Positions 30,568 to 61,854 of a stretch of 61,854 nucleotides of DNA are shown in pieces; position 1 is the first letter of the stretch, and every line of letters begins with the position of its first letter. The translations under genes and the position numbers were made by a program. The notes below the pieces were generated by a model. That model saw nothing but the letters and a program-made list of their open reading frames with translations. It did not search any database and was not told where the DNA came from. The stretch comes from an uncultured Alphaproteobacteria bacterium. Its GTDB lineage: Bacteria > Pseudomonadota > Alphaproteobacteria > GCA-002720895. The stretch covers positions 1 to 61,854 of the forward strand of contig CACLKH010000004.1 in NCBI GenBank assembly GCA_902607475.1. Direction: 5' to 3'.

Positions 30568-31272
30568 ATGATTGACAGAAACTTTACAACAGCGACTAAA
30601 TCTCAAGCCCAAGTAGATGTAGGTCTAAGAGAGTATATGCTTAAAGTTTATAACTACATGGCAACAGGGCTTGGCTTAACGGGTTTGACTGCCTATTTTG
30701 TAGCAATTACACCAAGTTTATTTAATGCAATTTATGGCACGCCTTTATATTGGGTAGTTGCTTTATCTCCTCTTGGCTTTGTTTTTTATTTAAGTGCAAG
30801 ATTACATAAAATTAGTTTTTCAAAAGCACAGACTATGTTTTGGCTATTTTCCGGTGTGATGGGACTTTCCATGGCATACATATTTATTGCTTTTACAGGA
30901 GCAAGTATTGCACGGGTATTTTTTATTACCGCTGGAACTTTTTCCGCTATGAGTCTTTATGGTTATACAACTAAAAAAGATCTCACAGGATGGGGTTCTT
31001 TTTTATTCATGGGATTAATTGGAATTATTATCGCATCTATTGTTAATATTTTTCTTAAAAGTCCAATGCTTTATTATGTAATATCATGTATAGGTGTTTT
31101 AGTTTTTGTAGGATTAACTGCATATGATACTCAAAGAATCAAAGAAATGTATTATGCAACTGATACTGCAGAAATAAGCGGAAAAAAAGCAATCATGGGA
31201 GCATTAAAACTTTATTTAGATTTCATAAATCTATTTATCATGCTTCTCCATTTATTTGGTCAAAGAAGATAA
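30568..31272 (+). CDS. Bax inhibitor-1/YccA family membrane protein
   Basis: 234 aa, 7 TM. N-terminal ...LREYMLKVYNYMA and C-terminal YLDFINLFIMLL are typical of the BI-1 family. Confidence 0.88.
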   Translation: MIDRNFTTATKSQAQVDVGLREYMLKVYNYMATGLGLTGLTAYFVAITPSLFNAIYGTPLYWVVALSPLGFVFYLSARLHKISFSKAQTMFWLFSGVMGLSMAYIFIAFTGASIARVFFITAGTFSAMSLYGYTTKKDLTGWGSFLFMGLIGIIIASIVNIFLKSPMLYYVISCIGVLVFVGLTAYDTQRIKEMYYATDTAEISGKKAIMGALKLYLDFINLFIMLLHLFGQRR

Positions 31273-31279
31273 TTTTTTT

Positions 31280-31310
31280 AAAAAGCCCATTCTTTTTTGG
31301 GCTTTTTTTT
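31280..31310 (+). terminator. rho-independent (potentially bidirectional) terminator
   Basis: Perfect 10-bp stem AAAAAGCCCA / TGGGCTTTTT with a 7-nt loop, followed by a T-run, directly after the stop at 31272. Confidence 0.85.
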
Positions 31311-31321
31311 TCCAAAACAAT

Positions 31322-31753
31322 ATGAATAAAGTTAAGTTTAATCCACAACTAAGTCCCAAAGAAATGTTAAAATTAGGTGTTTTTGGAGGTTATTATTTTG
31401 AAGGAATACATAGCGAATATCCAAAAGATTGGTTTAAAGACGCCAAACTTAGTAACGCCGGATATAATATTAATTTAAATTGCTTTAAAATTAATTCTGG
31501 TTTATCACGGAATGAATGGATAGAAAGAGGCTGGATTACTAAAGAAGATCCTCTTGGCTGGTTTCAATGGTACTGTAGATATACAATGGGAAGAAGAATA
31601 CCAAATATAGATAATATTCAAATTAAACGCTGGAAAGCATTTGGACCAAGACATATAGGAGGTATAAAAGCAAACTGTGAACCAGGAAATATTGATTGCC
31701 GTCCTAGACAAAGACAAGCTTTGTTACATTGGGCATATGATCCGTTTATATAG
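31322..31753 (+). CDS. conserved-looking hypothetical protein (Trp/Arg-rich, no family named)
   Basis: Start moved to MNKVKFNPQ... because the tracked ORF start (31256) would read through the terminator hairpin. 143 aa. Confidence 0.55.
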   Translation: MNKVKFNPQLSPKEMLKLGVFGGYYFEGIHSEYPKDWFKDAKLSNAGYNINLNCFKINSGLSRNEWIERGWITKEDPLGWFQWYCRYTMGRRIPNIDNIQIKRWKAFGPRHIGGIKANCEPGNIDCRPRQRQALLHWAYDPFI

Positions 31754-43816: not shown

Positions 43817-44635
43817 TTAAATTCTCTTTTTTAGATATCCCAACACATCTGTGTTTTTATTTTTATTATTAAATTCTTTCATTTTATTAATGTTGTTTGT
43901 TACGGGGTTAGCTGCACTTGATTTTAAATATCCCAGTACTTCTGTGTTTTTGTTTTTATTATTAAATTCTTTCATTTTATTAATGTTGTTTGTTACGGGA
44001 TTAGCCGCACTTGATTTTAAATATCCCAGTACTTCTGTGTTTTTGTTTTTATTATTAAATTCTTTCATTTTATTAAAATTTTTTTCTAATGGGCTATGAA
44101 TACTAGATAAATTGTTAGCTAAGATGGTTTGATTGGAATTACTTTTATCAAAATTTCTATTATTTAATATATTATGTGCAAGAATTTCACTACCGTGATT
44201 TTTTAAAACTTCTATATTGTTTTTTTTAATACCTTCAACTTTTTTAGCATTTGCTAACATTGAAATTTGTCTAGTACCATGTTTTTGTTCTATTATTGGA
44301 ACTATCGTAGGTTCTGAATTTAAACCCAACATACTTATTTTATTTTTATTTCTATCTTCGTATATCTTAGGTTTAAATTCCTCACATATTTTTTCACGCT
44401 TAGCAACTCTGGTCATCTTGCAATCTTTTCCTAATACAAAAGAAACTGCATGATCTGTTGCTGTTTTATCAGTATAATATTCGGTAAGTAATTCTGTAGT
44501 AGTTTTAGCAAAACTTAACTCTTTAATAGTAGTTGAAGATGTTGTCATCGGTGTTATTAAAGAACAACTTACTATTATTATAATAGCAACTAATAAACAA
44601 ACGCCTTTATACCATTTTATTACTATATCTCCCAT
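43817..44635 (-). CDS. repeat-containing lipoprotein, function unknown
   Basis: 272 aa. Lipobox-like ...IVSCS. The C-terminus carries about 2.6 copies of a 31-aa unit (KMKEFNNKNKNTEVLGYLKSSAANPVTNNIN). Confidence 0.6.
   Translation of the reverse strand: MGDIVIKWYKGVCLLVAIIIIVSCSLITPMTTSSTTIKELSFAKTTTELLTEYYTDKTATDHAVSFVLGKDCKMTRVAKREKICEEFKPKIYEDRNKNKISMLGLNSEPTIVPIIEQKHGTRQISMLANAKKVEGIKKNNIEVLKNHGSEILAHNILNNRNFDKSNSNQTILANNLSSIHSPLEKNFNKMKEFNNKNKNTEVLGYLKSSAANPVTNNINKMKEFNNKNKNTEVLGYLKSSAANPVTNNINKMKEFNNKNKNTDVLGYLKKRI
43835..44080 (-). repeat. 93-bp in-frame tandem repeat, about 2.6 copies
   Basis: Unit starts at 43835, 43928 and 44021 (period exactly 93). Copies differ by a few substitutions only. 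Confidence 0.95.
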
Positions 44636-47948: not shown

Positions 47949-49097
47949 TTAATTTTCTAAAAAAATCAAGTAAGTATAAGCAACAATTACAGCAGGAATA
48001 GCGCTGTAAATTGTAGCTAAAATTGCATCTTTAGGACAAATTGCTATTGCTGGAAACAAGGCATCCCCATCATTTGATATTGCATTGCCTATTTCTGCAG
48101 AAAATGGGATATACCCATTTAAATATAATGTTGCGGTTAAAATTTGTGGACCACATCCTGGAATAAAACCAACAAAAATTGCTATTAAAGGTGTAAGTGG
48201 TAAAATAACATCAAATAATTTTTCAAAATTTAATCCTGTAAAGTAAATACCTAAATCAAAAAATAAAAATCCAACCACTACCCAAAAGGTTACAAAATTA
48301 GTTAAATCCACACTTTTAAAATTAATTTCTCTTGATCTATCTAGCGAAATAGCTCTATCTGAAAATGGATTAATAGTCCAAAGAAAAATTGAAAAAAAAG
48401 CAGCACTAAACCCAATTATATAATTTATATCAAAATTTAAAACTTTAGGCAGAGTTATTTGTAAATGATTAATAATGCCTAAAAAAAATCCTGGAATAAA
48501 AATTATTAACCAAATCTTATATAAAAATAAATGAAATTTATTATTAATCTCTTGTAAATTTAAATCTATTTTTGGATTATTATTTTTAACTTTTTTTTTC
48601 ATAAAAAAATCTATCAAAAAACCTGTTAAAGAACCTGAGACCATACAAATTAAAAAAATAAGAAGAGCACTTGCAGGTTCTTTTGCTAAAATTAAAAAAG
48701 CAGCATCACCCATAGTAGAAGTTAAAACCGCAACTAAACAACCAAAAGTAATATTTCCTTGTAAATATTGTGTAACAACTATAATCGCTCCTCCACAACC
48801 AGGAATTGCTCCTAATAAAGATGCAATAGGTATTTGAAGCTTTAGATTTTTTTTAAAAAAATTACTAAGAGAATATTTCTTTGATTTTTCTAATCTTAAA
48901 AAAATAAATAAAGTTATTGCAACATAAACCGAAACAGATAAATATGCATTTGCCATAGCTAAGCGTGATATAGAACCCACTTCGGTAGGATTAAACACAA
49001 GAGTAAGAAGAAAAAGGAATATAAAAGTTTTTTTTAAATTTAAATCTTGAAGAAATCTGAAATAATTATTTTTTATTGATAAAATTAATTCTGTCAT
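47949..49097 (-). CDS. mntX: polytopic membrane protein, candidate MntX-type manganese transporter
   Basis: 382 aa, about 10 TM, with duplicated GAIPGCGG / GFIPGCGPQ motifs. Divergent from a MntR/DtxR-family regulator. The MntX family was described in marine bacteria including SAR11. The assignment rests on context plus recollection of that family. Confidence 0.5.
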   Translation of the reverse strand: MTELILSIKNNYFRFLQDLNLKKTFIFLFLLTLVFNPTEVGSISRLAMANAYLSVSVYVAITLFIFLRLEKSKKYSLSNFFKKNLKLQIPIASLLGAIPGCGGAIIVVTQYLQGNITFGCLVAVLTSTMGDAAFLILAKEPASALLIFLICMVSGSLTGFLIDFFMKKKVKNNNPKIDLNLQEINNKFHLFLYKIWLIIFIPGFFLGIINHLQITLPKVLNFDINYIIGFSAAFFSIFLWTINPFSDRAISLDRSREINFKSVDLTNFVTFWVVVGFLFFDLGIYFTGLNFEKLFDVILPLTPLIAIFVGFIPGCGPQILTATLYLNGYIPFSAEIGNAISNDGDALFPAIAICPKDAILATIYSAIPAVIVAYTYLIFLEN

Positions 49098-49122
49098 AAT
49101 TTTTAATTAGTAACTACTTAAT

Positions 49123-49142
49123 AAGTTAGCCTATACTAACTT
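49123..49142. promoter_or_regulatory. candidate MntR operator (inverted repeat) in the divergent promoter region
   Basis: AAGTTAG-cctata-CTAACTT, perfect 7-bp arms, between the transporter (-) and the regulator (+). The half-site TAGC resembles E. coli MntR boxes. Confidence 0.35.
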
Positions 49143-49192
49143 TTTTTCAAGTTTTAATGGAAAAAGAAAAATGTTAAATTTATAAAAAAAAT

Positions 49193-49621
49193 ATGTTTAA
49201 AAAAAATCCAAAAAAAGATGCAAAATCTTACATATACACTAGAAAAGCACATAAAAATGAGTTAGCAGAAGATTATGTGGAATTAATAGAAGATTTAATT
49301 ATTAAGGAAGGTGAGGCAAGAATAGTTGATATTGCAGATCACCTAGGTATATCTAAAGCAACAGCAAATCAAACAATTAATAGATTAGTAAAAAAAGGTT
49401 TTTTAACATCAAAACCTTATAGAACAATCCGTCTTACTAAAAAAGGAGAAAATACTGCAACATATGTACGTCAAAGACATAAAATTGTTTATGATTTCTT
49501 AATTGCATTAGGATTAGATAAGGAAACAGCAGAACTCGATAGTGAGGGAATAGAACATCATGTTGGAAATAAAACTTTAAACAAATTAAAAAATTTAACT
49601 AATAAATTAAAAAAAAAATGA
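49193..49621 (+). CDS. mntR: DtxR/MntR-family metal-dependent transcriptional regulator
   Basis: 142 aa. ELAEDYVELIEDLI..EGEARIVDIADHLGISKATANQTINRLVKKGF is the MntR-type wHTH. Confidence 0.82.
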   Translation: MFKKNPKKDAKSYIYTRKAHKNELAEDYVELIEDLIIKEGEARIVDIADHLGISKATANQTINRLVKKGFLTSKPYRTIRLTKKGENTATYVRQRHKIVYDFLIALGLDKETAELDSEGIEHHVGNKTLNKLKNLTNKLKKK

Positions 49622-50022: not shown

Positions 50023-50748
50023 ATGAATACAAATATACTTATCTTACAACACATATCCGTAGAAGATCCGGGTTTTATAAAAGATTTGATGATTAAAGAC
50101 AATTTTAATCTTAAAACTATAAAGCTTTATAAAAAAGAAAAAATTCCAAAAGATTTAAAAAAATACGATGCCATGTTTTCAATGGGAGGGCCTATGGATA
50201 CATGGATGGAAAATAAATATCCATGGTTAAAAAATGAAAAAAAAGCAATACACGAATACGTTGTAAAACTGAAAAAACCATTCCTAGGTTTTTGTCTCGG
50301 CTGTCAATTACTTGGTGAAGTTTTAGGAGGAAAAGTAGAGAGAATGGAAAAATCTGAAATCGGGATTTTAGATCTTTATATGCAAAACGGGTATACCAAA
50401 GATACTTTGTTTCAAAATTTTGATACATCTATTAAAGTTTTACAATGGCATTCTTATCAAGTAAATAACTTAAGTAGTAATGTAGAAATTTTAGCTTCAT
50501 CTGACCTTTGTAAATATCAAGCTTTTCGTTATAAACAACATGCCTATGGCATACAATTTCATTTAGAAACTAAAAATAATACTATTAAAAATTGGGCGTC
50601 CATACCTGAATATAAAAAATCATTAGAAAATAGTCTGGGCATGGGGTCAATAAAAAAACTAGAAAGTGATACTCAAACTCATTTAAACATAATGAATAAA
50701 AATGTTACTTCTATGTACCAAGGATTTAAATCAATAATAAAGAAATGA
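50023..50748 (+). CDS. class I glutamine amidotransferase (GATase1) domain protein
   Basis: ATG at 50023 preferred over TTG at 50020. Nucleophile elbow GFCLGCQLL and the His/Glu pair in QFHLE. Confidence 0.85.
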   Translation: MNTNILILQHISVEDPGFIKDLMIKDNFNLKTIKLYKKEKIPKDLKKYDAMFSMGGPMDTWMENKYPWLKNEKKAIHEYVVKLKKPFLGFCLGCQLLGEVLGGKVERMEKSEIGILDLYMQNGYTKDTLFQNFDTSIKVLQWHSYQVNNLSSNVEILASSDLCKYQAFRYKQHAYGIQFHLETKNNTIKNWASIPEYKKSLENSLGMGSIKKLESDTQTHLNIMNKNVTSMYQGFKSIIKK

Positions 50749-50850
50749 AAAAACTCTTACTCATACTTCTTTTCCTTTTTAAAAAAGTTTTATGTTTATA
50801 AAAAAAATTTTCTTCTTCCATTTTTTATAATTGTATAATGAAATAGTAAT

Positions 50851-51009
50851 ATGGAAATACAGTGTTATAAATGCGGAAAAGATATGGAATGTAATCCGGA
50901 AGGCAAATGTTGGTGTAAGAATCTAAAATTTAAGATTGCTCGAGAAAATATAGAAAAAAATAAAAATTGTTTATGCGAAGATTGCTTAATAAATAATCTC
51001 ACTTCTTGA
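50851..51009 (+). CDS. cysteine-rich CWC-family small protein
   Basis: Not in ORF track (52 aa). MEIQCYKCGKDMECNPEGKCWCKNLKFKIARENIEKNKNCLCEDCLINNLTS has CxxC...CWC...CxCxxC spacing. Confidence 0.6.
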   Translation: MEIQCYKCGKDMECNPEGKCWCKNLKFKIARENIEKNKNCLCEDCLINNLTS

Positions 51010-51065
51010 ATAATTAATAATATTTTTACTTCCAAAATCATGGTTCATAGTGCTATAATTTTGAT

Positions 51066-51359
51066 ATGAAAAAATTTTTTTTAATATTAATAATAAGTTT
51101 TAGTATAACTGCCTGCGAACAGTTATCTAAATCCGACAATGAACTTGTTAAATTTTCTGCTAAGAATTTAGAAGAAAGCTCTCAGGCAGAAGAAAGTTTT
51201 AAAAAATATGGCCAGGTATATTATAATATTCACCTTGGCAGATTGTGTTCTCCTGATGGTAAAGCGGTAAGTCTTATTTGGTTAAACCAAGTTGATCCTA
51301 GTGGTGAAAAAATCACCAAGGATCAGTTAAATGTTTCAAAAGAAAATTGTAAAAAATAA
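51066..51359 (+). CDS. hypothetical lipoprotein
   Basis: 97 aa. Lipobox ...SITAC. Confidence 0.5.
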   Translation: MKKFFLILIISFSITACEQLSKSDNELVKFSAKNLEESSQAEESFKKYGQVYYNIHLGRLCSPDGKAVSLIWLNQVDPSGEKITKDQLNVSKENCKK

Positions 51360-51376
51360 TAGGCGCAGGAGTTGGA

Positions 51377-53750: not shown

Positions 53751-53828
53751 AGAAAAAAAGTTAGAAACCTTGAGATTTTTGGTGGAGCTAGACGGGATCG
53801 AACCGACGACCTCTTCACTGTCAGCGAA
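53751..53828 (-). repeat. att-like repeat copy 1: tRNA-Ala 3' fragment (tRNA positions 28-76 at 53780-53828) plus 29 nt of downstream flank
   Basis: Minus strand TTCG-CTGACAG-TGAAG-AGGTC-GTCGG-TTCGATC-CCGTC-TAGCTCC-ACCA. It differs from copies 2 and 3 by one substitution in the anticodon (GGC->GAC). The flank AGAAAAAAAGTTAGAAACCTTGAGATTTTT matches 59641-59669. Confidence 0.85.
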
Positions 53829-53885
53829 CTTTAAAAAGTAAATGTGGTTTTAATATTTTTTTTAGGTAATATAAAAAAAAAAAAA

Positions 53886-54170
53886 ATGAATAAAAAACTC
53901 ACTATATTTCTTATTTTAAGTTTTCTTAGTTTACAAACTTTTTCTTTTTGGCATCAAGCTGAATTTAACTTTGAAGAACATGAGCACAATAAAGATGTTT
54001 GTGAAATTTATTTATATTGTGATCAATCAAAAGATAATATGTCTAATGCTGCATTATCGCTGCAAGGACTTGAATATTTTACTTTTGCTTTTGTTTTAGA
54101 AAGAAATTTTCTTACTTATTCAAAAAAATATAGAGTAACTTCGACCCGAGCCCCACCACAATTCTCCTAA
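53886..54170 (+). CDS. small exported His-rich protein (possibly DUF2946-like metal-associated protein)
   Basis: Start moved to MNKKLTIFLILSF... (signal peptide). WHQAEFNFEEHEHNKDVCEIYLYC and C-terminal ...RAPPQFS. The family assignment is tentative. Confidence 0.4.
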   Translation: MNKKLTIFLILSFLSLQTFSFWHQAEFNFEEHEHNKDVCEIYLYCDQSKDNMSNAALSLQGLEYFTFAFVLERNFLTYSKKYRVTSTRAPPQFS

Positions 54171-54257
54171 AACATATTTTTAAATTTTATTAATTTAGTA
54201 CATTGCCCTGTATTTCACAGGTCAATTTACATCTTTTTTTTAAGGAGACAAAAAAAA

Positions 54258-55610
54258 ATGCTTAAAACTAAACTAGCAGCATCTGCCGCCATAATATCTT
54301 TGTTCTTCGGTACTTCTGTATTAGCAGAATCCGATAAGGATATCGATATATTAAGAGCTGAAATCCAAAATATGAAACAGGTCTATGAGAAACGTATTGC
54401 AGATATGGAGGCAAAACTTGTAAGAGTTGAAAAAAAACGTGATCAGGTTTCTGTTTCAACTGGAAAAAAAGTTCCTATAAGATCTAGCCGTAGAATACTT
54501 TCTAATAGTTATAATCCATCAGTTGGATTAATCTTAAATGGAAAATATTCAAATTTTTCATCAGGAAGTTCAGAAATACCAGGCTTTGGCATTGGCGAAG
54601 AAGGAGAGCGCGGAAAGGAAGGGCCTGCAATTGGAGAATCCGAAATGAATTTTTCTGCAAGTGTAGATGATAAATTCTACGGAAGCTTAACATCAGCAAT
54701 TGTACGAGAAGGTGGGTCAGATAAGATAGAGCTAGAAGAAGCTTATTTACAATCCTTACCAGGTTTAGGTTTGCCTAGCGGCTTGAGTTTAAAAGCAGGA
54801 CGTTCTTTATGGACGCTTGGTTATCTTAATGAACATCACGCTCACACTGATGACTTCGCAGATCGTCCACTACCTTATCGTGCGTATCTAAATAAATCAT
54901 TTAATGATGATGGTTTGGCTACATCATATGTTTTGCCAACAAATTTCTATTCAGAGATTGGAGGAGGAATATTTCGTGCAGATGATTTTCCATTTGGCAC
55001 CGGTGATGGTGAAAATACCGCATGGTCTGCCTTTGCTCGTATCGGTGGCGATATAGGAAATAATCAAAACTGGCGTTTAGGCGGTTATTTACTATCTGGA
55101 GAATCTAAAGGTAGTGGTCGAAAAAGTAATGAGGATGCAGTTATATTTAAAGGAGAATCAGATCTTTATGTAACTGATCTACGTTACGTTTGGGCTCCAA
55201 CTGGAAACGCGCGTAATAAAGAAGTTATATTCCAAACTGAATATTTCTGGCGTAGTGAAGATGGAACATATCAAGATACCGAAAATTCTACCGGTATTAT
55301 TAATTTTGATGATTCATCTAGCGGTCTTTATATCCAAGGTGTCTACAAGTTTTTTCCTAGATGGCGCGTTGGCGTTCGTTACAGCAGGTTATTTTCACCT
55401 AATGTTCCTGCAGGATTAGTTGGTAGTAATTTGGATTCTGCAAACTTTGATCCAAGAGCATATGCGACAATGATTGATTGGACAAACAGTGAGTTCAGTC
55501 GTGTTCGTTTACAATATAATCATGAAAAGCTTAAGGACGGACAAACCGATAAACAATTCATGATGCAATATGTTATTAGTATTGGTGCTCATGGTGCACA
55601 CAAATATTAA
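54258..55610 (+). CDS. outer-membrane beta-barrel protein with N-terminal coiled coil (porin-like; metal-uptake context)
   Basis: 450 aa. Signal peptide ...SVLA/ES, heptad-like DIDILRAEIQNMKQVYEKRIADMEAKLVRVE, then alternating beta-strand pattern. Family not named. Confidence 0.5.
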   Translation: MLKTKLAASAAIISLFFGTSVLAESDKDIDILRAEIQNMKQVYEKRIADMEAKLVRVEKKRDQVSVSTGKKVPIRSSRRILSNSYNPSVGLILNGKYSNFSSGSSEIPGFGIGEEGERGKEGPAIGESEMNFSASVDDKFYGSLTSAIVREGGSDKIELEEAYLQSLPGLGLPSGLSLKAGRSLWTLGYLNEHHAHTDDFADRPLPYRAYLNKSFNDDGLATSYVLPTNFYSEIGGGIFRADDFPFGTGDGENTAWSAFARIGGDIGNNQNWRLGGYLLSGESKGSGRKSNEDAVIFKGESDLYVTDLRYVWAPTGNARNKEVIFQTEYFWRSEDGTYQDTENSTGIINFDDSSSGLYIQGVYKFFPRWRVGVRYSRLFSPNVPAGLVGSNLDSANFDPRAYATMIDWTNSEFSRVRLQYNHEKLKDGQTDKQFMMQYVISIGAHGAHKY

Positions 55611-55616
55611 AGTAGC

Positions 55617-56525
55617 ATGATGATGAGATTGTTTAAACTAATATTGATTGGGTTGTTTTGCACAACATCAAATGTAACACATGCAATGGTAAATATTTTT
55701 GCCTGTGAACCGGAGTGGGGAGCTCTTGCAAAAGAAATTGGTGGCAGTAAAGTAAAAATCTTTTCTGCCACCCATGCAAAACAAGATCCCCATTACATTC
55801 GTGCTCGTCCTAGTCTTATTGCTAAAGCTAGGAAAGCTAATATTATTTTTTGTTCTGGTGCTGGTTTGGAAGTAGGATGGTTACCTTTATTATTACAAAA
55901 AGCTGAGTCGAGTGTTCAACCAGGAATGGAGGGCCATTTAATAGCATCCAAATTTGTAAAAGTGTTAGAAAAACCAATAGTGGTTGATCGTACAATGGGA
56001 GACATACATCCAGAAGGAAATCCACATGTACATCTTAATCCTCACAACATTTCTTTAATAGCAAAAGAGTTAACAAAAAGATTGGAATTGATTGATGCAA
56101 CCAATGCATCTTTTTATCGCAATCGTTTCAACAGTTTTGCTTTACGTTGGAAAGAAGCTATTGTTCGATGGGAAAAAAATGCTTCTGATCTTAAAGGAAT
56201 GCAAGTTGTTGTTCATCATAGAACATTTAGTTATTTAATAGACTGGTTAGGACTGATAGAAGTAGCATCTTTAGAATTAAAACCTGGTATTCCTGCTACC
56301 GCATCACATCTAGAAGGATTATTGCAACAATTTAAAACAAAACCTCCCGATGTAATTGTTCGTACACCTTATGAGCCAGGCAATGCTAGTATATGGTTGT
56401 CAGAAAAAATTAATAGTCCGGCAATAGTATTACCCTATACAATTAACGGTGATGTTAGTAGCGTTGACCTTTTTGCATTATTTGAAAATTCTATTAATTT
56501 ATTAAAAGGAGCACTGAATGATTAG
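55617..56525 (+). CDS. ZnuA/TroA-family periplasmic metal-binding protein
   Basis: 302 aa with a signal peptide. HAKQDPHYI..RPS and GDIHPEGNPHVHLNPHN metal-site motifs of cluster A-I substrate-binding proteins. Confidence 0.8.
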   Translation: MMMRLFKLILIGLFCTTSNVTHAMVNIFACEPEWGALAKEIGGSKVKIFSATHAKQDPHYIRARPSLIAKARKANIIFCSGAGLEVGWLPLLLQKAESSVQPGMEGHLIASKFVKVLEKPIVVDRTMGDIHPEGNPHVHLNPHNISLIAKELTKRLELIDATNASFYRNRFNSFALRWKEAIVRWEKNASDLKGMQVVVHHRTFSYLIDWLGLIEVASLELKPGIPATASHLEGLLQQFKTKPPDVIVRTPYEPGNASIWLSEKINSPAIVLPYTINGDVSSVDLFALFENSINLLKGALND

Positions 56526-57279
56526 CAATGAAATGATCTATGTTATCGGTCCTGCATTATTAATTTGCTCTATGATCGTTTTAACCCATGTTCCTTTAGG
56601 AATTGAGGTTTTGAAAAGAGGAATTATTTTTATTGATTTAGCGGTAGCCCAAATTGCTGGTTTAGGATTAATAGCAACAAATTTTTTATTCTATGAGCCT
56701 CATCCCTTGTTACCACAATTAGTAGCATTGACTTGTGCAATTCTTGCTGGGTTATTTTTTCATAAAGTCGAAATAAAGATACCGAAACAGCAAGAAGCAA
56801 TTATTGGAGTAACTTTTATACTTGCAGCATCTTTAGCTATTTTACTATTAGCTGATCATCCTAACGGAGGAGAAGAAATCCGACATTTACTTTCAGGCCA
56901 GATTTTATTTGTTACATGGCAAGATATAGCAAAGCATACACCCATTTATGTTTTAATTCTTGCAGTATGGTTTTTTAAAAAGGAATATCGAAATAATATC
57001 GGTTTCTATTTACTCTTTGCACTAGCTGTTACCTCATCTGTACAGATGGTAGGAATATACGTAGTGTTTGCTAGTCTTATTTTACCTGCATTAGCAGTAA
57101 TAAACATAAGTAATCCATATAAGTTAGGGTGGCTTTGTGGAATTATTTCAGTAATAGCAGGGATTTTTTTAGCAACCTTTTTTGATGCTCCTGCAGGTCC
57201 ATTAATTGTTATAAGTTATGTTCTTACAACTATAATTTTTGTAATTATAACCAAGATGAATAGACAAAAATTAAATTAG
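56518..57279 (+). CDS. ZnuB-like ABC-3 family metal transporter permease
   Basis: 253 aa, about 8 TM. GIIFIDLAVAQIAGLG motif. Overlaps the binding-protein gene by 8 nt. No ATPase gene is adjacent. Confidence 0.75.
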   Translation: MISNEMIYVIGPALLICSMIVLTHVPLGIEVLKRGIIFIDLAVAQIAGLGLIATNFLFYEPHPLLPQLVALTCAILAGLFFHKVEIKIPKQQEAIIGVTFILAASLAILLLADHPNGGEEIRHLLSGQILFVTWQDIAKHTPIYVLILAVWFFKKEYRNNIGFYLLFALAVTSSVQMVGIYVVFASLILPALAVINISNPYKLGWLCGIISVIAGIFLATFFDAPAGPLIVISYVLTTIIFVIITKMNRQKLN

Positions 57280-57371
57280 ATTTTTGGTGGAGCTAGACGG
57301 GATCGAACCGACGACCTCTTCACTGCCAGCGAAGTGCTCATTTAACAAAATTTCAATCTATACTTAGCTTT
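57278..57371 (-). repeat. att-like repeat copy 2: tRNA-Ala(GGC) 3' fragment (positions 22-76 at 57285-57339) plus shared 32-nt non-tRNA arm
   Basis: Minus strand GAGCA-CTTCG-CTGGCAG-TGAAG-AGGTC-GTCGG-TTCGATC-CCGTC-TAGCTCC-ACCA. The 5' side continues as GCTAAGTATAGATTGAAATTTTGTTAAAT, shared with copy 3, and has no D arm or acceptor strand. Confidence 0.85.
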
Positions 57372-57394
57372 CACGAGAATGTTATTGTTTGCAA

Positions 57395-57424
57395 TGACAA
57401 TAGAGTGACAATTTTTGCTCAAAA
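57395..57424 (+). repeat. arm box A (TGACAAT-agag-TGACAAT-TTTTGCTCAAAA)
   Basis: Direct doublet plus the 17-mer ACAATTTTTGCTCAAAA, which is also found at 59588-59604 and 61834-61850. Confidence 0.8.
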
Positions 57425-57447
57425 ATCACGGATCATGGTGCTAGAAT
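57421..57447 (+). promoter_or_regulatory. flavour-1 element: AAAATCACGGATCATGGTGCTAGAAT (11-mer core plus extended -10)
   Basis: TGcTAGAAT ends 6 nt before the ATG of pilin 1. The same 27-mer is found at 58016-58042 and, reverse-complemented, at 61792-61818. Confidence 0.5.
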
Positions 57448-57453
57448 TATTGT

Positions 57454-57993
57454 ATGAAACAAAAAGGATTCTCATTAATCGAACTTTTGGTCGTGGTTGC
57501 CATCATTGGAATCTTGGCAGCAGTTGGAGTAGTTGCTTATAATGGGTATACGAAAGCTGCAAAAAAAAATATGGTTTTATCAAATCTAAATAAAGTAGTT
57601 AAATTGATACAATCAGAATTGTTAATATGTTCTGTAGGTGGTGAAATGATGCCGTATCTAAAATCATTAAAAAACAACAATATTAAAAATATGTCAAACT
57701 ATAGCTGCGAATACTTTAAAAAAAATGGATATTCTGAAAATCATGTTTGGATTGCAGGGGCAGTTGTGGCTTACCTTCATAGTTATGGACATCTTGATGG
57801 TTTTAGTAATCCTTTTAATAAAGATGATAATGTTAAAAGCGGAATTAATAGTTCTGGTGGTTGTGCAGCAAATGAAGTGGTTTTGGGAAGAGTGCGTTGT
57901 AGTGAAAAACCAGCGGGGGCTTATAAATGTTGTTGCAAATGGGGAGAAGGCGCTAATGATTATACTGAAAAAATTATTCCAAATCCTTTCTAA
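57454..57993 (+). CDS. type IV pilin / pseudopilin (prepilin N-terminal methylation motif), paralogue 1
   Basis: 179 aa. MKQKG/FSLIELLVVVAIIGILAAVGVVAYNGYT class III leader plus hydrophobic helix. Cys-rich variable C-terminal domain. Confidence 0.88.
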   Translation: MKQKGFSLIELLVVVAIIGILAAVGVVAYNGYTKAAKKNMVLSNLNKVVKLIQSELLICSVGGEMMPYLKSLKNNNIKNMSNYSCEYFKKNGYSENHVWIAGAVVAYLHSYGHLDGFSNPFNKDDNVKSGINSSGGCAANEVVLGRVRCSEKPAGAYKCCCKWGEGANDYTEKIIPNPF

Positions 57994-58016
57994 AATTGTC
58001 CACCAATTTTGCATCG

Positions 58017-58042
58017 AAAATCACGGATCATGGTGCTAGAAT
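58017..58042 (+). promoter_or_regulatory. flavour-1 element (11-mer core plus extended -10)
   Basis: AAATCACGGATCATGGTGCTAGAAT. The -10 ends 6 nt before the ATG of pilin 2. Confidence 0.5.
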
Positions 58043-58048
58043 TATTGT

Positions 58049-58558
58049 ATGAAACAAAAAGGGTTTTCATTAATAGAACTTTTAGTAGTTGTTGCTATTA
58101 TTGGAATCCTGGCAGCGGTTGGTGTGGTTGCTTATAATGGATATACGAAAGGTGCAAAAGCTAATGCTACTAAAGCTAATCACAAAGAATTTATAAATTA
58201 CGCATCTTCACTACTTATGAAATGTCATATGGGAGAAACAAAAATTGATTTAATGGTTAATCCTCAAAGCGAAACTCAAAGTTATAACTGCGCAGACTCT
58301 CTTGGAAATTTTCTTGGTCTTTTTCAAACACATTTGTGGAATTATAAAAAAATATCTAATCCTTATAGACCTGATCAACCTGCCTTTAGTTATACTTCAC
58401 CGGGAGGTTTTCTAAAAAGTAGATTGGGATATACAAATATGTGGATTATTGGAGGATCTCCGAGCGCACCGGTTAATGTATCGACAGAATATGAAGAAGG
58501 AAAAACTTTAACAACTACCATAACTATTTGTTTGGCTGGAGGTTGTGATTATCAATAA
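58049..58558 (+). CDS. type IV pilin, paralogue 2
   Basis: 169 aa. Same N-terminal 34 aa as paralogue 1 but with many synonymous differences. Unrelated C-terminal domain ending ...CLAGGCDYQ. Confidence 0.88.
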   Translation: MKQKGFSLIELLVVVAIIGILAAVGVVAYNGYTKGAKANATKANHKEFINYASSLLMKCHMGETKIDLMVNPQSETQSYNCADSLGNFLGLFQTHLWNYKKISNPYRPDQPAFSYTSPGGFLKSRLGYTNMWIIGGSPSAPVNVSTEYEEGKTLTTTITICLAGGCDYQ

Positions 58559-59045
58559 ATCAAAAAAAGGATTTTCATTAATAGAACTTTTGGTCGTGGT
58601 TGCAATCATTGGAATCTTGGCAGCAGTTGGAGTAGTTGCTTATAATGGATATACGAAAGCTGCAAAAAGGAATGCGGTTATTTCTAATTTTAACACTGCT
58701 CTAAGATACATAAAACAAGAAATGATGAAATGCGATATAGGTGCTGGACCTATAAGATTTATGACTAAAGATAATGGTTTAAAAGATTGGGAATGTAGCG
58801 TAGTTAATTCAAATAAAACTAGATTTGATGAATTTACTCAAGGATATTTGGGTCATATAGAATATGGTTTTGGTATGACAAATCCCTATACCGGACTAGA
58901 TATTGGAGGACAAGCAGTGGGCCAAATGCAATTTGGTGAAGATACCGGTTGGTTAATTTTAAGGTCTTGGTATTTAGATAAAAACGATGATAAACAAACT
59001 CTTGAAGTCCTAAGAGTAAATAGCACGCAATATCAAATTCCTTAA
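58545..59045 (+). CDS. type IV pilin, paralogue 3
   Basis: 166 aa. GTG start overlaps the pilin 2 stop. MIINKSKKG/FSLIEL... The N-terminal DNA is almost identical to paralogue 1 over about 95 nt. Confidence 0.85.
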   Translation: MIINKSKKGFSLIELLVVVAIIGILAAVGVVAYNGYTKAAKRNAVISNFNTALRYIKQEMMKCDIGAGPIRFMTKDNGLKDWECSVVNSNKTRFDEFTQGYLGHIEYGFGMTNPYTGLDIGGQAVGQMQFGEDTGWLILRSWYLDKNDDKQTLEVLRVNSTQYQIP

Positions 59046-59051
59046 AAAATT

Positions 59052-59534
59052 ATGCTAAGAAAAAAACAAAAAGGATTTTCCTTGATAGAACTTTTAGTTG
59101 TTGTTGCGATCATTGGAATCTTAGCTGCGGTTGGAGTGGTTGCTTATAATGGGTATACCAATGCAGCAAAAAAAAATACAACTATAACAAATCATAATAA
59201 TGTAGTTAAATTTTTACAAAACCAACTAATTAAGTGTGAACTAGGTGATGCAAATATTGGTGAGGCATTAACTGTCAATGAGCAAGGTAGTAAAAAAACA
59301 TTATATTGCCCAATTGTAGCAAATATCGACACAAAATTTTGGATAGGACATTTTTATTATGAAAATTGGAAAAATAGTTATTATACAAATGAAGAAACTG
59401 TCAAAGATAATTGTAACGACAAAGAAGGGTGCATAGAATTTAAAGCGCCAAACAAAACAACCTTTACTATTAAAAGTTTTTACAAAGAAAATAATATATT
59501 ACAAAGCAAAACTACCACAATAAAAACAAATTAA
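59052..59534 (+). CDS. type IV pilin, paralogue 4
   Basis: 160 aa. MLRKKQKG/FSLIELLVVVAIIGILAAVGVVAYNGYT, with a divergent C-terminal domain. Confidence 0.88.
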   Translation: MLRKKQKGFSLIELLVVVAIIGILAAVGVVAYNGYTNAAKKNTTITNHNNVVKFLQNQLIKCELGDANIGEALTVNEQGSKKTLYCPIVANIDTKFWIGHFYYENWKNSYYTNEETVKDNCNDKEGCIEFKAPNKTTFTIKSFYKENNILQSKTTTIKTN

Positions 59535-59545
59535 ATAAAATAATT

Positions 59546-59567
59546 AATCCCGTATCACGGATCAGGA
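59546..59567 (+). promoter_or_regulatory. flavour-2 element AATCCCGTATCACGGATCAGGA (3' module boundary)
   Basis: Lies 11 nt after the pilin 4 stop. Identical 22-mers, reverse-complemented, are at 59811-59832 and 60969-60990, each just 3' of a minus-strand gene. Confidence 0.45.
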
Positions 59568-59572
59568 ATTTA

Positions 59573-59608
59573 CTGACAATTGACTGACAATTTTTGCTCA
59601 AAACATAG
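59573..59608 (+). repeat. arm box B (CTGACAATT-ga-CTGACAATT-TTTGCTCAAAACATAG)
   Basis: Direct 9-mer doublet. The last 21 nt are identical to the last 21 nt of the window. Confidence 0.8.
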
Positions 59609-59638
59609 TCAATTCATCAACCATGAAAAATTAGCCCT

Positions 59639-59756
59639 GAAGAAAAAACGTTGGAAACATTGAGATTTTTGGTGGAGCTAGACGGGATCGAACCGACGAC
59701 CTCTTCACTGCCAGCGAAGCGCCCATTTATCAAAATTTCAATCTATACTTAGCTTT
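59639..59756 (-). repeat. att-like repeat copy 3: tRNA-Ala(GGC) 3' fragment (positions 22-76 at 59670-59724) with both flanks
   Basis: Shares the CCA-distal flank with copy 1 and the 32-nt non-tRNA arm with copy 2. No 5' acceptor or D arm can be folded. Confidence 0.85.
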
Positions 59757-59778
59757 TTTAAACTAAACAAAAAGTTAC

Positions 59779-59810
59779 GGCACAATTACGACACAATTTT
59801 TCTTAAAAAC
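59779..59810 (+). repeat. arm box C (GGCACAATT-ac-GACACAATT-TTTCTTAAAAAC)
   Basis: Degenerate copy of the doublet-plus-tail structure, about 55 nt right of the tRNA part of copy 3. Confidence 0.7.
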
Positions 59811-59832
59811 TCCTGATCCGTGATACGGGATT
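59811..59832 (-). promoter_or_regulatory. flavour-2 element (reverse complement), overlaps the stop codon of 59831-60607
   Basis: TCCTGATCCGTGATACGGGATT on the + strand. Confidence 0.45.
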
Positions 59833-60607
59833 AACAATAACCAGCAATACAAAGACCTTGGTACATTTGCATGAGGCTATTATGCAAATTTTGTTGTCTC
59901 ATTGCTTCATATTGTTGTATGGCTTGTTGTCTTTGTAATTCTTGCATTGCTCTTTGTTGTTCAGAAACTTGTGATTGATACCTAGAATTTATTTCTGCTC
60001 TTTTTTGAGCATCAATTTGCGCTTGTTGTATTGCTAGCTCTTTAACTTTTAAAATACATTCGCCAAATTTTTCTGTACCTTCTTTGAATCCGTATTTTTT
60101 ACAAGTATTAAAAAAATCTTGATCATTATTAAGATTAATAACATTTTGTGTCTGTTGTTGTTTTAGAACAGGTTGTTTGGTTTGTTTTTTTTCATCAGCA
60201 ACAACAACGCCAGGAAAATGTGTGGGATTTTTTCTAATAAATTCTATAATTTGTTTTTTACTTTGCTCACCTACGTAATAATCACCTTGCATTGTTAAAA
60301 CACAAGCCTGATTAGCTTTTGTTTCTTTTGCTTTTCTGCATTTATCAACTGCGCCTTCATTTGCTGCCTTTTGTGATCTGGAATCTACATATTGCCCATA
60401 TGGATTTTCATGAAACATTCCAGCATAAGGTCCTGTTGTCCATATAGCTCTTGCCTGAGCTCTAAATTTTCCTTTACTCTTACGAAACTTCCATGAATAT
60501 GGGGAGCCTTGATAAGATTCATATACATACTGCAAAGATTTAGCAGAGTGAAATGGAGTTATCATCCAACTAAATAATATAACTAAAAACAAAAGCAAAT
60601 ATTTCAT
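59831..60607 (-). CDS. exported protein with Gln-rich coiled-coil C-terminus, function unknown
   Basis: 258 aa with a signal peptide. N-domain with paired Cys (DKCRKA...ACVLTMQG). CKKYGFKEGTEKFGEC motif. QQAQIDAQKRAE...QQRAMQELQRQQAIQQYEAMRQQ. Ends ...CIAGYC. Confidence 0.5.
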   Translation of the reverse strand: MKYLLLFLVILFSWMITPFHSAKSLQYVYESYQGSPYSWKFRKSKGKFRAQARAIWTTGPYAGMFHENPYGQYVDSRSQKAANEGAVDKCRKAKETKANQACVLTMQGDYYVGEQSKKQIIEFIRKNPTHFPGVVVADEKKQTKQPVLKQQQTQNVINLNNDQDFFNTCKKYGFKEGTEKFGECILKVKELAIQQAQIDAQKRAEINSRYQSQVSEQQRAMQELQRQQAIQQYEAMRQQNLHNSLMQMYQGLCIAGYC

Positions 60608-60656
60608 ATCAAATCATTCAATTCACTATATATTTATGCTATAATAAACATTACAA

Positions 60657-60950
60657 ATGTTAAGGGTTTTTTACATACTCTTTTATTTTGTAATTGTATT
60701 TTTCATTACTGCTAATAAAGAAACACAAGCAGCTTGCACATGCGAGTGTGTTAATGGTAGAAGTGTTCCTATATGTTCTAGTACTATGGATCTTCCACCA
60801 TTTTGTTCACAAATGTGCCCACTTAATCCATCGCAACTTCAACCTCTTGGAAGAAATAATCTACCTCCTTTAGGAACAAGAAATTGTGAATTTATGCAAG
60901 TATACAATCCGGTTACTCATATATATGAATGGAAAAACGTTTGTTACTAA
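60657..60950 (+). CDS. small Cys-rich secreted protein
   Basis: 97 aa. Signal peptide plus 8 Cys (CTCECVNG...PICS...PFCSQMCP...C...VCY). Confidence 0.45.
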   Translation: MLRVFYILFYFVIVFFITANKETQAACTCECVNGRSVPICSSTMDLPPFCSQMCPLNPSQLQPLGRNNLPPLGTRNCEFMQVYNPVTHIYEWKNVCY

Positions 60951-60968
60951 AATAAGTGAACCAATGAT

Positions 60969-60990
60969 TCCTGATCCGTGATACGGGATT
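60969..60990 (-). promoter_or_regulatory. flavour-2 element (reverse complement) between convergent genes
   Basis: TCCTGATCCGTGATACGGGATT, 19 nt 3' of the stop of 61010-61450. Confidence 0.45.
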
Positions 60991-61009
60991 ATTATTTCTT
61001 CTTATAAAA

Positions 61010-61450
61010 TTATCCACCACATAAACGTCTTATATCTCTAATTTGCTCTTTCCAGGAGGATGTAAGTAGTACTTTATGTTTATAATTGTAATATCCCTCA
61101 TGAGCATTTCTATCCCCAGCGGCAAACATCAAAGTAGCTGCTTTTGCTTTCGCATCTATTTGTTTCATTCTATTATTTAGAATATCTATTTGTGATTGAT
61201 GATGATTCAGTTCGTATTTACGAGCCAATTCTTTTTCTCTTTCCCATTCACAATCTGCTTCATCCGTCATAATGGTCATACTGCCTTGATAAGCAACAAT
61301 TTCTATACATTTTTCTGTTCCTGGCTGATCCCCATAAACATATCCAAATAATTCTTTTTTGTAATCCATTACGCTAGTACAAATCTTAGGTAAAGCAAAA
61401 GTTGTATGAACCGGGAAAAGGAGAAGAAGTATGACTAAGAGTTTTTTCAT
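61010..61450 (-). CDS. exported hypothetical protein
   Basis: 146 aa with a signal peptide, 4-5 Cys, and a central coiled-coil-like segment. Its start overlaps the stop of the upstream gene (ATGA). Confidence 0.5.
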   Translation of the reverse strand: MKKLLVILLLLFPVHTTFALPKICTSVMDYKKELFGYVYGDQPGTEKCIEIVAYQGSMTIMTDEADCEWEREKELARKYELNHHQSQIDILNNRMKQIDAKAKAATLMFAAGDRNAHEGYYNYKHKVLLTSSWKEQIRDIRRLCGG

Positions 61451-61785
61451 TTACTTGCGTGACAACTATCCAATTTCCATTCCAAAGATTTGTTTTTATA
61501 GACACCTTTCCCAAGAGTTTTTACGCAACTCTTTACACTTTCATTTTGTTTTTCTAATCTTTCATGTGCATATGAATCTTCATATACACTCTCAGGTGTG
61601 TCATTTTCAGAACTTTTAAAAAAATTATAAAGGAAAGCAATAATTCCGAGAAGGATTATTGCAAAAATATATTCTTTGGGATCTTTCCATGGATTCCAAA
61701 AAGTTCTTGAACCACAATGTGGACATGATTTAGCGCTCTTAGACATTTCTCTATTACAATCTTTGCATTTTATTAAATTTCCCAT
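61447..61785 (-). CDS. zinc-ribbon membrane protein
   Basis: Start moved to MGNLIKCKDCNREMSKSAKSCPHCGS (CxxC...CxxC ribbon) followed by one TM helix. The tracked ORF extension (to 61836) covers the promoter-like element. Confidence 0.55.
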   Translation of the reverse strand: MGNLIKCKDCNREMSKSAKSCPHCGSRTFWNPWKDPKEYIFAIILLGIIAFLYNFFKSSENDTPESVYEDSYAHERLEKQNESVKSCVKTLGKGVYKNKSLEWKLDSCHASK

Positions 61786-61791
61786 ACCAAA

Positions 61792-61818
61792 ATTATAGCA
61801 CCGTGATCCGTGATTTTC
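61792..61818 (-). promoter_or_regulatory. flavour-1 element (minus strand): AAAATCACGGATCACGGTGCTATAAT
   Basis: TGcTATAAT ends 6 nt before the ATG at 61785. Confidence 0.5.
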
Positions 61819-61854
61819 GACACAATTACGACACAATTTTTGCTCAAAACATAG
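61818..61854 (+). repeat. arm box D (CGACACAATT-a-CGACACAATT-TTTGCTCAAAACATAG), truncated by the window end
   Basis: Same architecture as box B, which lies 61 nt before tRNA fragment copy 3. Confidence 0.8.

Follow-up and report, generated by a model that had tools for sequence, protein, structure and literature searches.

Three tRNA-Ala(GGC) 3' fragments delimit cargo segments of a probable additive genomic island in an uncultured alphaproteobacterium

Contig CACLKH010000004.1 of an uncultured alphaproteobacterium, analysed here over its whole length of 61,854 nt (the window), carries three incomplete copies of the 3' part of a tRNA-Ala(GGC) gene within its terminal region. We conclude that this region (53.75-61.85 kb) probably belongs, as its distal part, to an additive flexible genomic island that lies 3' of tRNA-Ala(GGC) and was built by serial insertions. 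The copies are scars that separate cargo segments of 2.1-3.5 kb, the locus is polymorphic among relatives, and the same cargo is found at other tRNAs; no recombinase gene was found in the segments or in the contig open reading frames (ORFs) that were read. The GC content of the island is 33-36%, against ~26% in the core.

Results

Three incomplete copies of one tRNA

The 32-mer GGTCGTCGGTTCGATCCCGTCTAGCTCCACCA matches the window exactly three times (none expected by chance), always on the minus strand, at 53780, 57285 and 59670, which bears out the original prediction of three direct copies; the 32-mer is identical to the 3' part of real tRNA-Ala(GGC). The extent of each copy within the tRNA was set by alignment to intact tRNA-Ala(GGC) genes of relatives (loci with the prefix L). 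Copy 1 (53780-53828) covers tRNA positions 28-76 in 49 nt, with one mismatch that changes the anticodon from GGC to GAC; copy 2 (57285-57339) runs from position 22 to 76 and departs from the tRNA only at position 26; and copy 3 (59670-59724) is exact from position 24 through 76. The single consensus first proposed for all three is therefore not exact for copy 1. None of the copies is a complete gene, as the original prediction held, since ARAGORN reports zero tRNA genes and Rfam zero matches at the gathering score in the window.

The parent of the fragments is a genuine gene. Intact tRNA-Ala(GGC) in L065, L067, L085, L093, L096 and L137-139 is identical to the window fragments, and GGTCGTCGGTTCGATCCCGTCTAGCTCCACCA ends bona fide tRNA-Ala(GGC/TGC) genes in 89 DNA stretches from species-representative genomes across Proteobacteria, including a Pelagibacteraceae metagenome-assembled genome (MAG). 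Because it does so, the U50-U64 pair of the T stem, already remarked on as a mismatch, is a feature of the real tRNA.

Sequence on both sides of the fragments is also shared. Copies 2 and 3 lie within a 94-nt direct repeat of 97% identity that includes the 32-nt non-tRNA 5' flank noticed earlier, found by repeat finding at 57340-57371 and 59725-59756 (minus strand) and resembling a P arm. On the other side the repeat runs on 3' of the CCA for ~29 nt at copy 1, ~7 nt at copy 2, and ~66 nt plus a 30-nt motif at copy 3. The trailer (AAAATCTCAAGGTTTCCAACGTTTTTTCTTCAGGGCTAATTTTTCATGG...) that follows intact tRNA-Ala(GGC) in relatives is what stands there: the 66 nt 3' of copy 3 (59604-59669, minus strand) are the same as those behind the intact gene in L067, L093, L096 and L137, and a remnant (AAAATCTCAAGGTTTCTAAC..., 53751-53779, minus strand) homologous to it lies 3' of copy 1. 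The window is the entire contig and breaks inside this repeat, its last ~36 nt repeating the sequence ~66 nt 3' of copy 3, as had been observed; it stops ~66 nt short of the expected tRNA. Contigs of the relatives L052, L065, L096 and L138-139 likewise break at tRNA-Ala. The predicted tRNA, or a fourth copy, just past the contig end is very likely, as L096 has an intact tRNA-Ala(GGC), a 66-nt trailer and then the same 72 nt as the window end, at 97% identity.

The fragments begin at tRNA positions 22-28 in the tRNA-Ala copies, at position 23 in a tRNA-Gly copy of L118, and in the T arm in L090. These endpoints match the anticodon-loop (A) or T-loop/junction (J) sublocations at which tyrosine integrases act and leave displaced 3' fragments of the tRNA gene (tDNA) (PMC4383910).

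Other readings of the fragments were examined and set aside. Weak Rfam hits to a permuted or two-piece tmRNA (E 0.22 and 5.4) cover the T arm and acceptor only, and intact tRNA-Ala genes account for that sequence. To see whether the 32-nt flank, or the flank of the tRNA-Gly copy, is the decayed 5' half of a tRNA, both were aligned locally, with results no better than for shuffled sequence (p 0.16-0.49), nor was a tRNA-like fold of each fragment with its own 5' flank (z -0.7 to +0.4). A dif/XerCD-like site was considered at TTTTGTTAAAT in the flank; judged by eye, its XerC arm is unconvincing.

Segments 2 and 3 carry paired end motifs

As described before, the fragments delimit discrete cargo segments, and Pfam and NCBIfam searches agree with the contents given for them. 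Segment 2 (cargo 57454-59534, plus strand) consists of four type IV pilin paralogues, at 57454-57993, 58049-58558, 58545-59045 and 59052-59534. Segment 3 (cargo 59831-61785, mixed strands) encodes a secreted Q-rich protein of 258 amino acids (aa) (59831-60607, minus), a 97-aa Cys-rich protein (60657-60950, plus), a 146-aa secreted protein (61010-61450, minus) and a zinc-ribbon membrane protein (61447-61785, minus).

Read in the orientation of the tRNA, both segments have the layout trailer, M, cargo, M', ~50 nt, next tRNA fragment. M and M' are 30-36 nt long, lie near the two ends of a segment on the minus strand, and are made up of TTTTGAGCAAAA and, behind it, two iterons with a spacing of 11 nt. 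The iterons are segment-specific. In segment 2 they are GTCAGT in M (59574-59603), which resembles a P' arm, and GTCACT/GTCATT in M' (57395-57424), the two ends matching at 29 of 36 positions. In segment 3 they are GTGTCG in M, which together with CTATG forms the window end (61815-61854), and GTGTCG/GTGCCG in M' (59775-59810), with 31 of 36 nt identical to M; the L096 counterpart of this M stands 66 nt behind the intact tRNA-Ala(GGC). Relatives have further iteron types, GTCCCA in L067 and L093 and GCTACA in L137-139. Within the window M is confined to the island, and a metagenome scan with a 20-mer from M gave seven loci, four of which are chance matches in GC-rich DNA.

When the two ends of a segment are joined, they form M' - 50 nt - tRNA 22-76 - 66 nt trailer - M, a platform of ~236-242 bp. 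To judge by this pattern, the ~240-bp platform would be attP-like, matching in size and layout an attP that carries arm-type sites, for which ~250 bp has been reported (PMC4383910).

The locus is polymorphic among relatives

Cassette content had been expected to vary at this locus, and it does: the number and content of cassettes in L052, L067/L093, L096, L090 and L137-139 differ from those of the window, as in additive islands. Also as in such islands, part-tRNA direct repeats stand downstream of the cassettes in a single orientation, here the three minus-strand copies. The junctions equivalent to those of the window carry an intact tRNA in L052, L067, L093, L096 and L137. In L052 the intact tRNA lies directly against the 3' end of an ABC-3 permease gene, which is the site of copy 2 in the window. 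L096 has M(GTGTCG) and the same promoter as the window end, with different cargo behind this shared promoter, while L067, L093 and L137-139 have the intact tRNA and trailer followed by M of other iteron types and other cargo. In an abundant Pelagibacter lineage (L127-136) the identical tRNA is followed at once by core genes, without trailer, M, fragments or an insert of this type. An M48 peptidase gene of the flank was of no use as an anchor for syntenic empty sites, its homologues (~48% identity) standing in unrelated contexts.

L090 (1075-1367) holds a tRNA-Ala fragment that begins in the T arm and has a different 5' flank, ~200 nt from a tRNA-Gly/Cys-like 3' fragment whose flank matches the one beside the L118 tRNA-Gly copy; together they make up a mosaic of att scars. 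In L093 an inverted partial tRNA-Ala trailer at the contig start (1-19) leaves a three-gene cassette bracketed by inverted trailers, which may be the product of an inversion or an assembly effect.

The host is most likely a member of the Pelagibacterales (SAR11), given the ~26% GC, the trailer held in common with a Pelagibacteraceae MAG, the permease relatives and the aroA/rpsA context. Close relatives of the island permease (~91% identity) are named Pelagibacteraceae or MarineAlpha6, and in the trailer-sharing relative L093 the tRNA adjoins aroA and rpsA, as in abundant marine Pelagibacter-type contigs.

A metal-uptake cargo at three tRNAs

Segment 1 (cargo 53886-57279, plus strand) was defined by Pfam and NCBIfam matches and by block homology to L118, L107, L114, L115 and L116. 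It encodes a 94-aa secreted protein (53886-54170), a 450-aa outer-membrane-like protein with no family match (54258-55610), a ZnuA-family binding protein (55617-56525) and an ABC-3 permease (56518-57279); Pfam and NCBIfam searches of the island ORFs gave no ATPase gene in this metal-uptake (Zn/Mn) cargo. In the core, 4-6 kb from it, lie a DtxR-type regulator and an ArsP_2 exporter (47949-49621). The last ~8 codons of the permease gene (57257-57279) are encoded by diverged tRNA trailer. The L052 permease (~100-127) has a different C-terminus, which comes from L052's own trailer.

The same cargo stands at other tRNAs in relatives. The block at 53886-57256 is 92.7% identical to L118, the syntenic core genes of the window and L118 being 84-90% identical. 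In L118 the metal block and one extra gene, for a 254-aa outer-membrane-like protein, lie between an intact tRNA-Gly(GCC) and a 56-nt tRNA-Gly copy that runs from position 23 to the end; there are no tRNA-Ala pieces around the metal block in L118, and the L118 population has different cargo at its tRNA-Ala. In L107, L114 and L115 the block, 84-87% identical, is found downstream of tRNA-Ser(GCT), as it is, by gene order, in L117. In L116, which is cut at a contig end, homology is partial and begins at 55399. High identity of the metal cargo across divergent sites is again a property of additive islands.

The sequence homologous to these relatives sets in at a distance of 57 nt from copy 1 and stops 28 nt short of copy 2, and for this reason we regard segment 1 as acting as a discrete unit. 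The arm-like repeats M and M' of segments 2 and 3 are absent from segment 1, which looks like a different, older or truncated insert.

L118 differs from the window in two further places. A gene for a 143/165-aa protein (window 31256-31753, L118 6328-6762; 79% identical) belongs to the core in the window and stands beside the tRNA-Gly island in L118. Synteny is broken at 50750-51360, a small variable patch in the window core with Cys-rich mini-ORFs and a degenerate island-type promoter, and the GATase gene is inverted in L118.

Promoter and gene-end modules share an 11-mer core

All six occurrences of the 11-mer ATCACGGATCA in the window (0.33 expected) lie between 57.4 and 61.8 kb. Allowing at most one mismatch, we counted 27 occurrences in 14 loci (the window and 13 related loci), all of promoter type or gene-end type except one hybrid in L090. 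The promoter module has the form iterons - TTTTGCATCGAAA - core - YGGTGCTATAAT, which as a search pattern would read (iterons)-TTTTGCWYSRAAA-ATCACGGATCA-YGGTGCTAKAAT, and the ATG usually follows 6-8 nt after the -10 hexamer; because of this spacing the mRNAs are predicted to be leaderless. The gene-end module (TM) has the form stop codon - TAATCCCGT - core - GGAAT.

In segment 2, module PM1 (57419-57456, plus; core 57425-57435) is the promoter of pilin 1, with an extended -10 TGCTAGAAT and the ATG 8 nt after the -10 hexamer, and PM2 (58009-58051, plus; core 58020-58030) is a second promoter module. PM3 (61783-61820, minus; core 61804-61814) in segment 3 reads TCGAAA-17-TATAAT with TG, the ATG following 6 nt after the hexamer. 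The gene-end module after pilin 4 (59544-59571, plus; TAATCCCGT-ATCACGGATCA-GGAAT) forms a 28-nt inverted repeat with the one after the 258-aa gene, located by repeat finding (59807-59834, minus), and the motif pattern identifies another in segment 3 (60969-60987, minus). When the gene-end motif was examined as an intrinsic terminator, it gave a hairpin of only 4-5 bp, no better than shuffled sequence, and its T-rich tail is on the antisense side.

In L090 one core links the upstream half of a promoter module with a gene-end module's downstream half. Taking out of the window the 1,534 bp that separate the core at 58020 from that at 59554, which hold pilins 2-4, makes it colinear with L090. The same promoter-upstream module stands before metal cargo in L118, before pilins in the window and before nothing in L090. 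Presence or absence of the pilin 2-4 block (~1.5 kb) exactly at the 11-mer hints at a second level of cassette exchange. Deletion or insertion via an 11-bp repeat that is kept for regulatory reasons could give the same result.

Conserved promoter modules (AAAATCACGGATCAYGGTGCTAKAAT) are confined to island genes in the window and in relatives, and a degenerate copy lies at 51031-51076 (plus). In several islands, small secreted proteins that are otherwise unrelated begin with the signal peptide MKKLLVILLLLFPVH, encoded by a block of ~45 nt. The positions are 61406-61450 (minus) and 50743-50779 (plus) in the window, 420-466 and 1199-1238 in L096, 535-579 in L093 and ~6590 in L115; in the core region of the window the block is a truncated remnant directly after the GATase gene. 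It could serve as a homology anchor for gene shuffling. Elsewhere in the core, an ORF at 43817-44635 (minus) ends in three tandem repeats of ~33 aa (KMKEFNNKNKNTEVLGYLKSSAANPVTNNIN).

Searches for a recombinase and for phage origin

The original prediction noted the lack of a recombinase, and our searches agree. Pfam and NCBIfam, applied to every island ORF, gave no integrase, resolvase or transposase; the ORFs of at least 160 aa read over contig positions 1-49,200 are housekeeping genes only, with no recombinase among them; and the precomputed Pfam annotations of genes around ~40 related loci hold none. The segments contain no tyrosine integrase (PF00589), which Islander expects in each unit, and neither the window nor the Pfam-annotated related loci contain the integrase or the replication or helicase-primase module of a tycheposon. 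Integron features are likewise missing from the array: there is no integrase, the cassettes own promoter modules, and the gene-end motif gives no attC-like folding signal. The contig has no genes resembling those of integrative and conjugative elements (ICEs).

Phage or satellite origin was also considered and rejected. In IMG/VR neither the fragment with its trailer nor the 5' flank, M or the promoter module found a match; the gene-end motif has one hit on a viral contig, which falls within a conserved phage ORF and is due to chance. Among 50,697 phage records we found generic tRNA-Ala similarity only. Cultured pelagiphages target tRNA-Cys, tRNA-Leu and tRNA-Arg (10.1101/410191).

Discussion

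How the array may have formed

The array is probably best explained by repeated insertion into one tRNA gene. Each insertion of circular DNA would restore an intact tRNA at the proximal end and push the previous insert outward along with the displaced tRNA 3' copy, so that the three copies would be attR-type scars, copy 1 being the oldest. The insertions would be centred on the anticodon loop, as the identity blocks that begin at positions 22-28 span the whole anticodon stem-loop, the A sublocation. Segments 2 and 3 would be miniature non-autonomous integrative units with M and M' at their ends as putative arm sites, and catalysis would be due to a tyrosine integrase encoded elsewhere or lost. 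The roles given here to M/M', the iterons and the 11-mer are suggested by pattern only.

Several observations weigh against serial integrase-type insertion. The searches yielded no integrase, excisionase, circular junction or integrase-bearing family member, and the intact tRNA beside the array lies off the contig. With three to four iteron types at a single tRNA, several cognate integrases would be needed. Segment 1 has no M/M' and its permease is fused to the trailer, unlike the outcome of clean att recombination. Identity extends far past the tRNA, reaching up to ~150 nt when trailer and M are counted, a length at which homologous recombination would be possible too. The contig is metagenome-assembled and its repeats exceed a typical k-mer in length, so that the order of the segments in series may be a chimera.

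Homologous recombination could in principle account for the whole array, no site-specific recombinase ever being involved. Circular or linear DNA with 55-150 nt of tRNA-Ala 3' part and trailer (and M) would enter by RecA-dependent single or double crossover, and cassettes would then be shuffled via the repeated promoter, gene-end and signal-peptide modules. The repeats reach ~150 nt beyond the need of an att core; homology between relatives breaks off at the edges of several modules (at the start codon, the left edge of the promoter-upstream module, the 11-mer, and near the permease stop); no recombinase was found in the searches made; and SAR11 islands have been reported without mobile elements (PMC11796062). 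We nevertheless hold this account to be unlikely. The fragments start sharply at the border of the D stem and anticodon stem (Ala 22-24, Gly 23), or in the T arm in L090, and these are tyrosine-integrase sublocations (PMC4383910), which is why we prefer integrase-type insertion to homologous recombination alone; in addition, a fixed non-tRNA flank abuts the fragment at two independent junctions. The original prediction went further and had the segments mobilised in trans, which was not borne out: the analysis turned up no cognate integrase, no circular junction and no relative that bears the element. Loss of the integrase or RecA-dependent exchange would be alternatives to mobilisation in trans.

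The serial order itself might be an assembly artefact, with strains that have single inserts joined via the fragment-trailer-M repeat into an array that exists in no one cell. The window is a full metagenomic contig ending inside the repeat, contigs of relatives (L052, L065, L096, L138-139) also break at this tRNA, and the junction-3 repeat is ~150-240 nt long. The junctions at copies 1 and 2, however, each made up of non-tRNA flank, fragment and unique downstream sequence, span only ~60-100 nt and so fall within single reads. Fragments joined to foreign 5' flanks exist in whichever order they stand, and a comparable pair of tRNA and fragment stands on one long contig in L118-L120, from three samples; we consider such an artefact improbable. 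Far less credible still is that the tRNA-like pieces are selected functional RNA or DNA elements (3' processing signals, terminators or tRNA mimics) instead of scars. It is true that 49-55 nt are perfectly conserved in an AT-rich genome and that copy 3 stands where the minus-strand genes of segment 3 have their 3' end. Against this, the orientation of the pieces to neighbouring genes is inconsistent, they fold with their 5' flanks no better than shuffled sequence, Rfam does not match them, their 5' flanks are not significantly tRNA-like (p 0.16-0.9), and relatives have an intact gene at the same junction.

A more elaborate version of the insertion scheme, which we regard as doubtful, is a two-level cassette system served by recombinases in trans. 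At the first level ~240-bp tRNA platforms with cassette-specific arm iterons may dock at tRNA-Ala, tRNA-Gly or tRNA-Ser, and at the second promoter-to-stop cassettes would be swapped exactly at ATCACGGATCA.

SAR11 is the most abundant marine bacterium, and the diversification of its islands is puzzling since recognisable mobile elements are almost absent. The locus described here is a compact, well-delimited example, with three tRNA scars and the same nutrient-uptake cargo at three tRNAs in relatives, and its conserved ~240-bp platforms can be synthesised and tried against candidate integrases. Should the arm-like iterons or the 11-mer be recombination sites, they would be signatures by which SAR11 metagenomes could be searched for cassette traffic; otherwise the locus stays a textbook additive island.

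Comparison with known systems

Cargo-only units bounded by tRNA fragments are less new than the original prediction assumed, precedents being at hand (PMC11796062, PMC4898812, 10.1101/2020.12.28.424599). Islands of SAR11 (GI-20, -30, -50 and -58) contain partial repeats of the flanking tRNA, which have been read as cassette insertion without canonical mobile elements (PMC11796062), and the same hallmark defines additive flexible islands at tRNA/tmRNA genes in Alteromonas (PMC4898812). The present locus shares with these islands a hotspot that probably lies 3' of a tRNA, cassettes bounded by part-tRNA direct repeats in sets that differ between related genomes, and near-identical cassettes in divergent backgrounds; the SAR11 islands, too, are without canonical mobile-element genes. 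It differs in having three serial scars within 6 kb at tRNA-Ala(GGC), two segments with paired arm-like repeats and segment-specific iterons, and the same cargo at three tRNAs (Ala, Gly and Ser). HVR1 of HTCC1062 also pairs a metal transporter with pilins (PMC2217521).

In the tycheposons of Prochlorococcus, serial integration at island tRNAs pushes older elements inward and partial tRNAs remain (Hackl et al., 10.1101/2020.12.28.424599). Common to both systems are streamlined oligotrophic marine bacteria as hosts, serial tRNA integration, scattered partial tRNAs and nutrient-uptake cargo that includes zinc; tycheposons, however, have their own tyrosine or large serine recombinase and a replication module, whereas we found neither here, nor any homologous backbone gene. 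Islander tDNA islands (PMC4383910) resemble the segments in their displaced 3' tDNA fragment in tRNA orientation, their anticodon-centred identity block and their attP of ~250 bp. Such islands and their tandem arrays require an integrase gene per unit, and none was found in any unit here; moreover, the 2.1-3.5 kb of our segments is just over the 2-kb minimum of Islander. Cis-mobilisable elements (CIMEs) and integron cassette arrays are alike in being cargo-only units, bounded by repeats resembling recombination sites and movable by a recombinase in trans. The window, by contrast, has no ICE, IntI, attI or attC, its cassettes carry their own promoters, and its repeats are tRNA fragments and arm-like motifs, not attC hairpins.

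Since Islander islands, tycheposons and integrons each require a recombinase of their own, the locus belongs to none of these classes. It is a clean further case of a known kind of island and not a new category, one in which no recombinase was found and whose cassette boundaries are unusually tidy.

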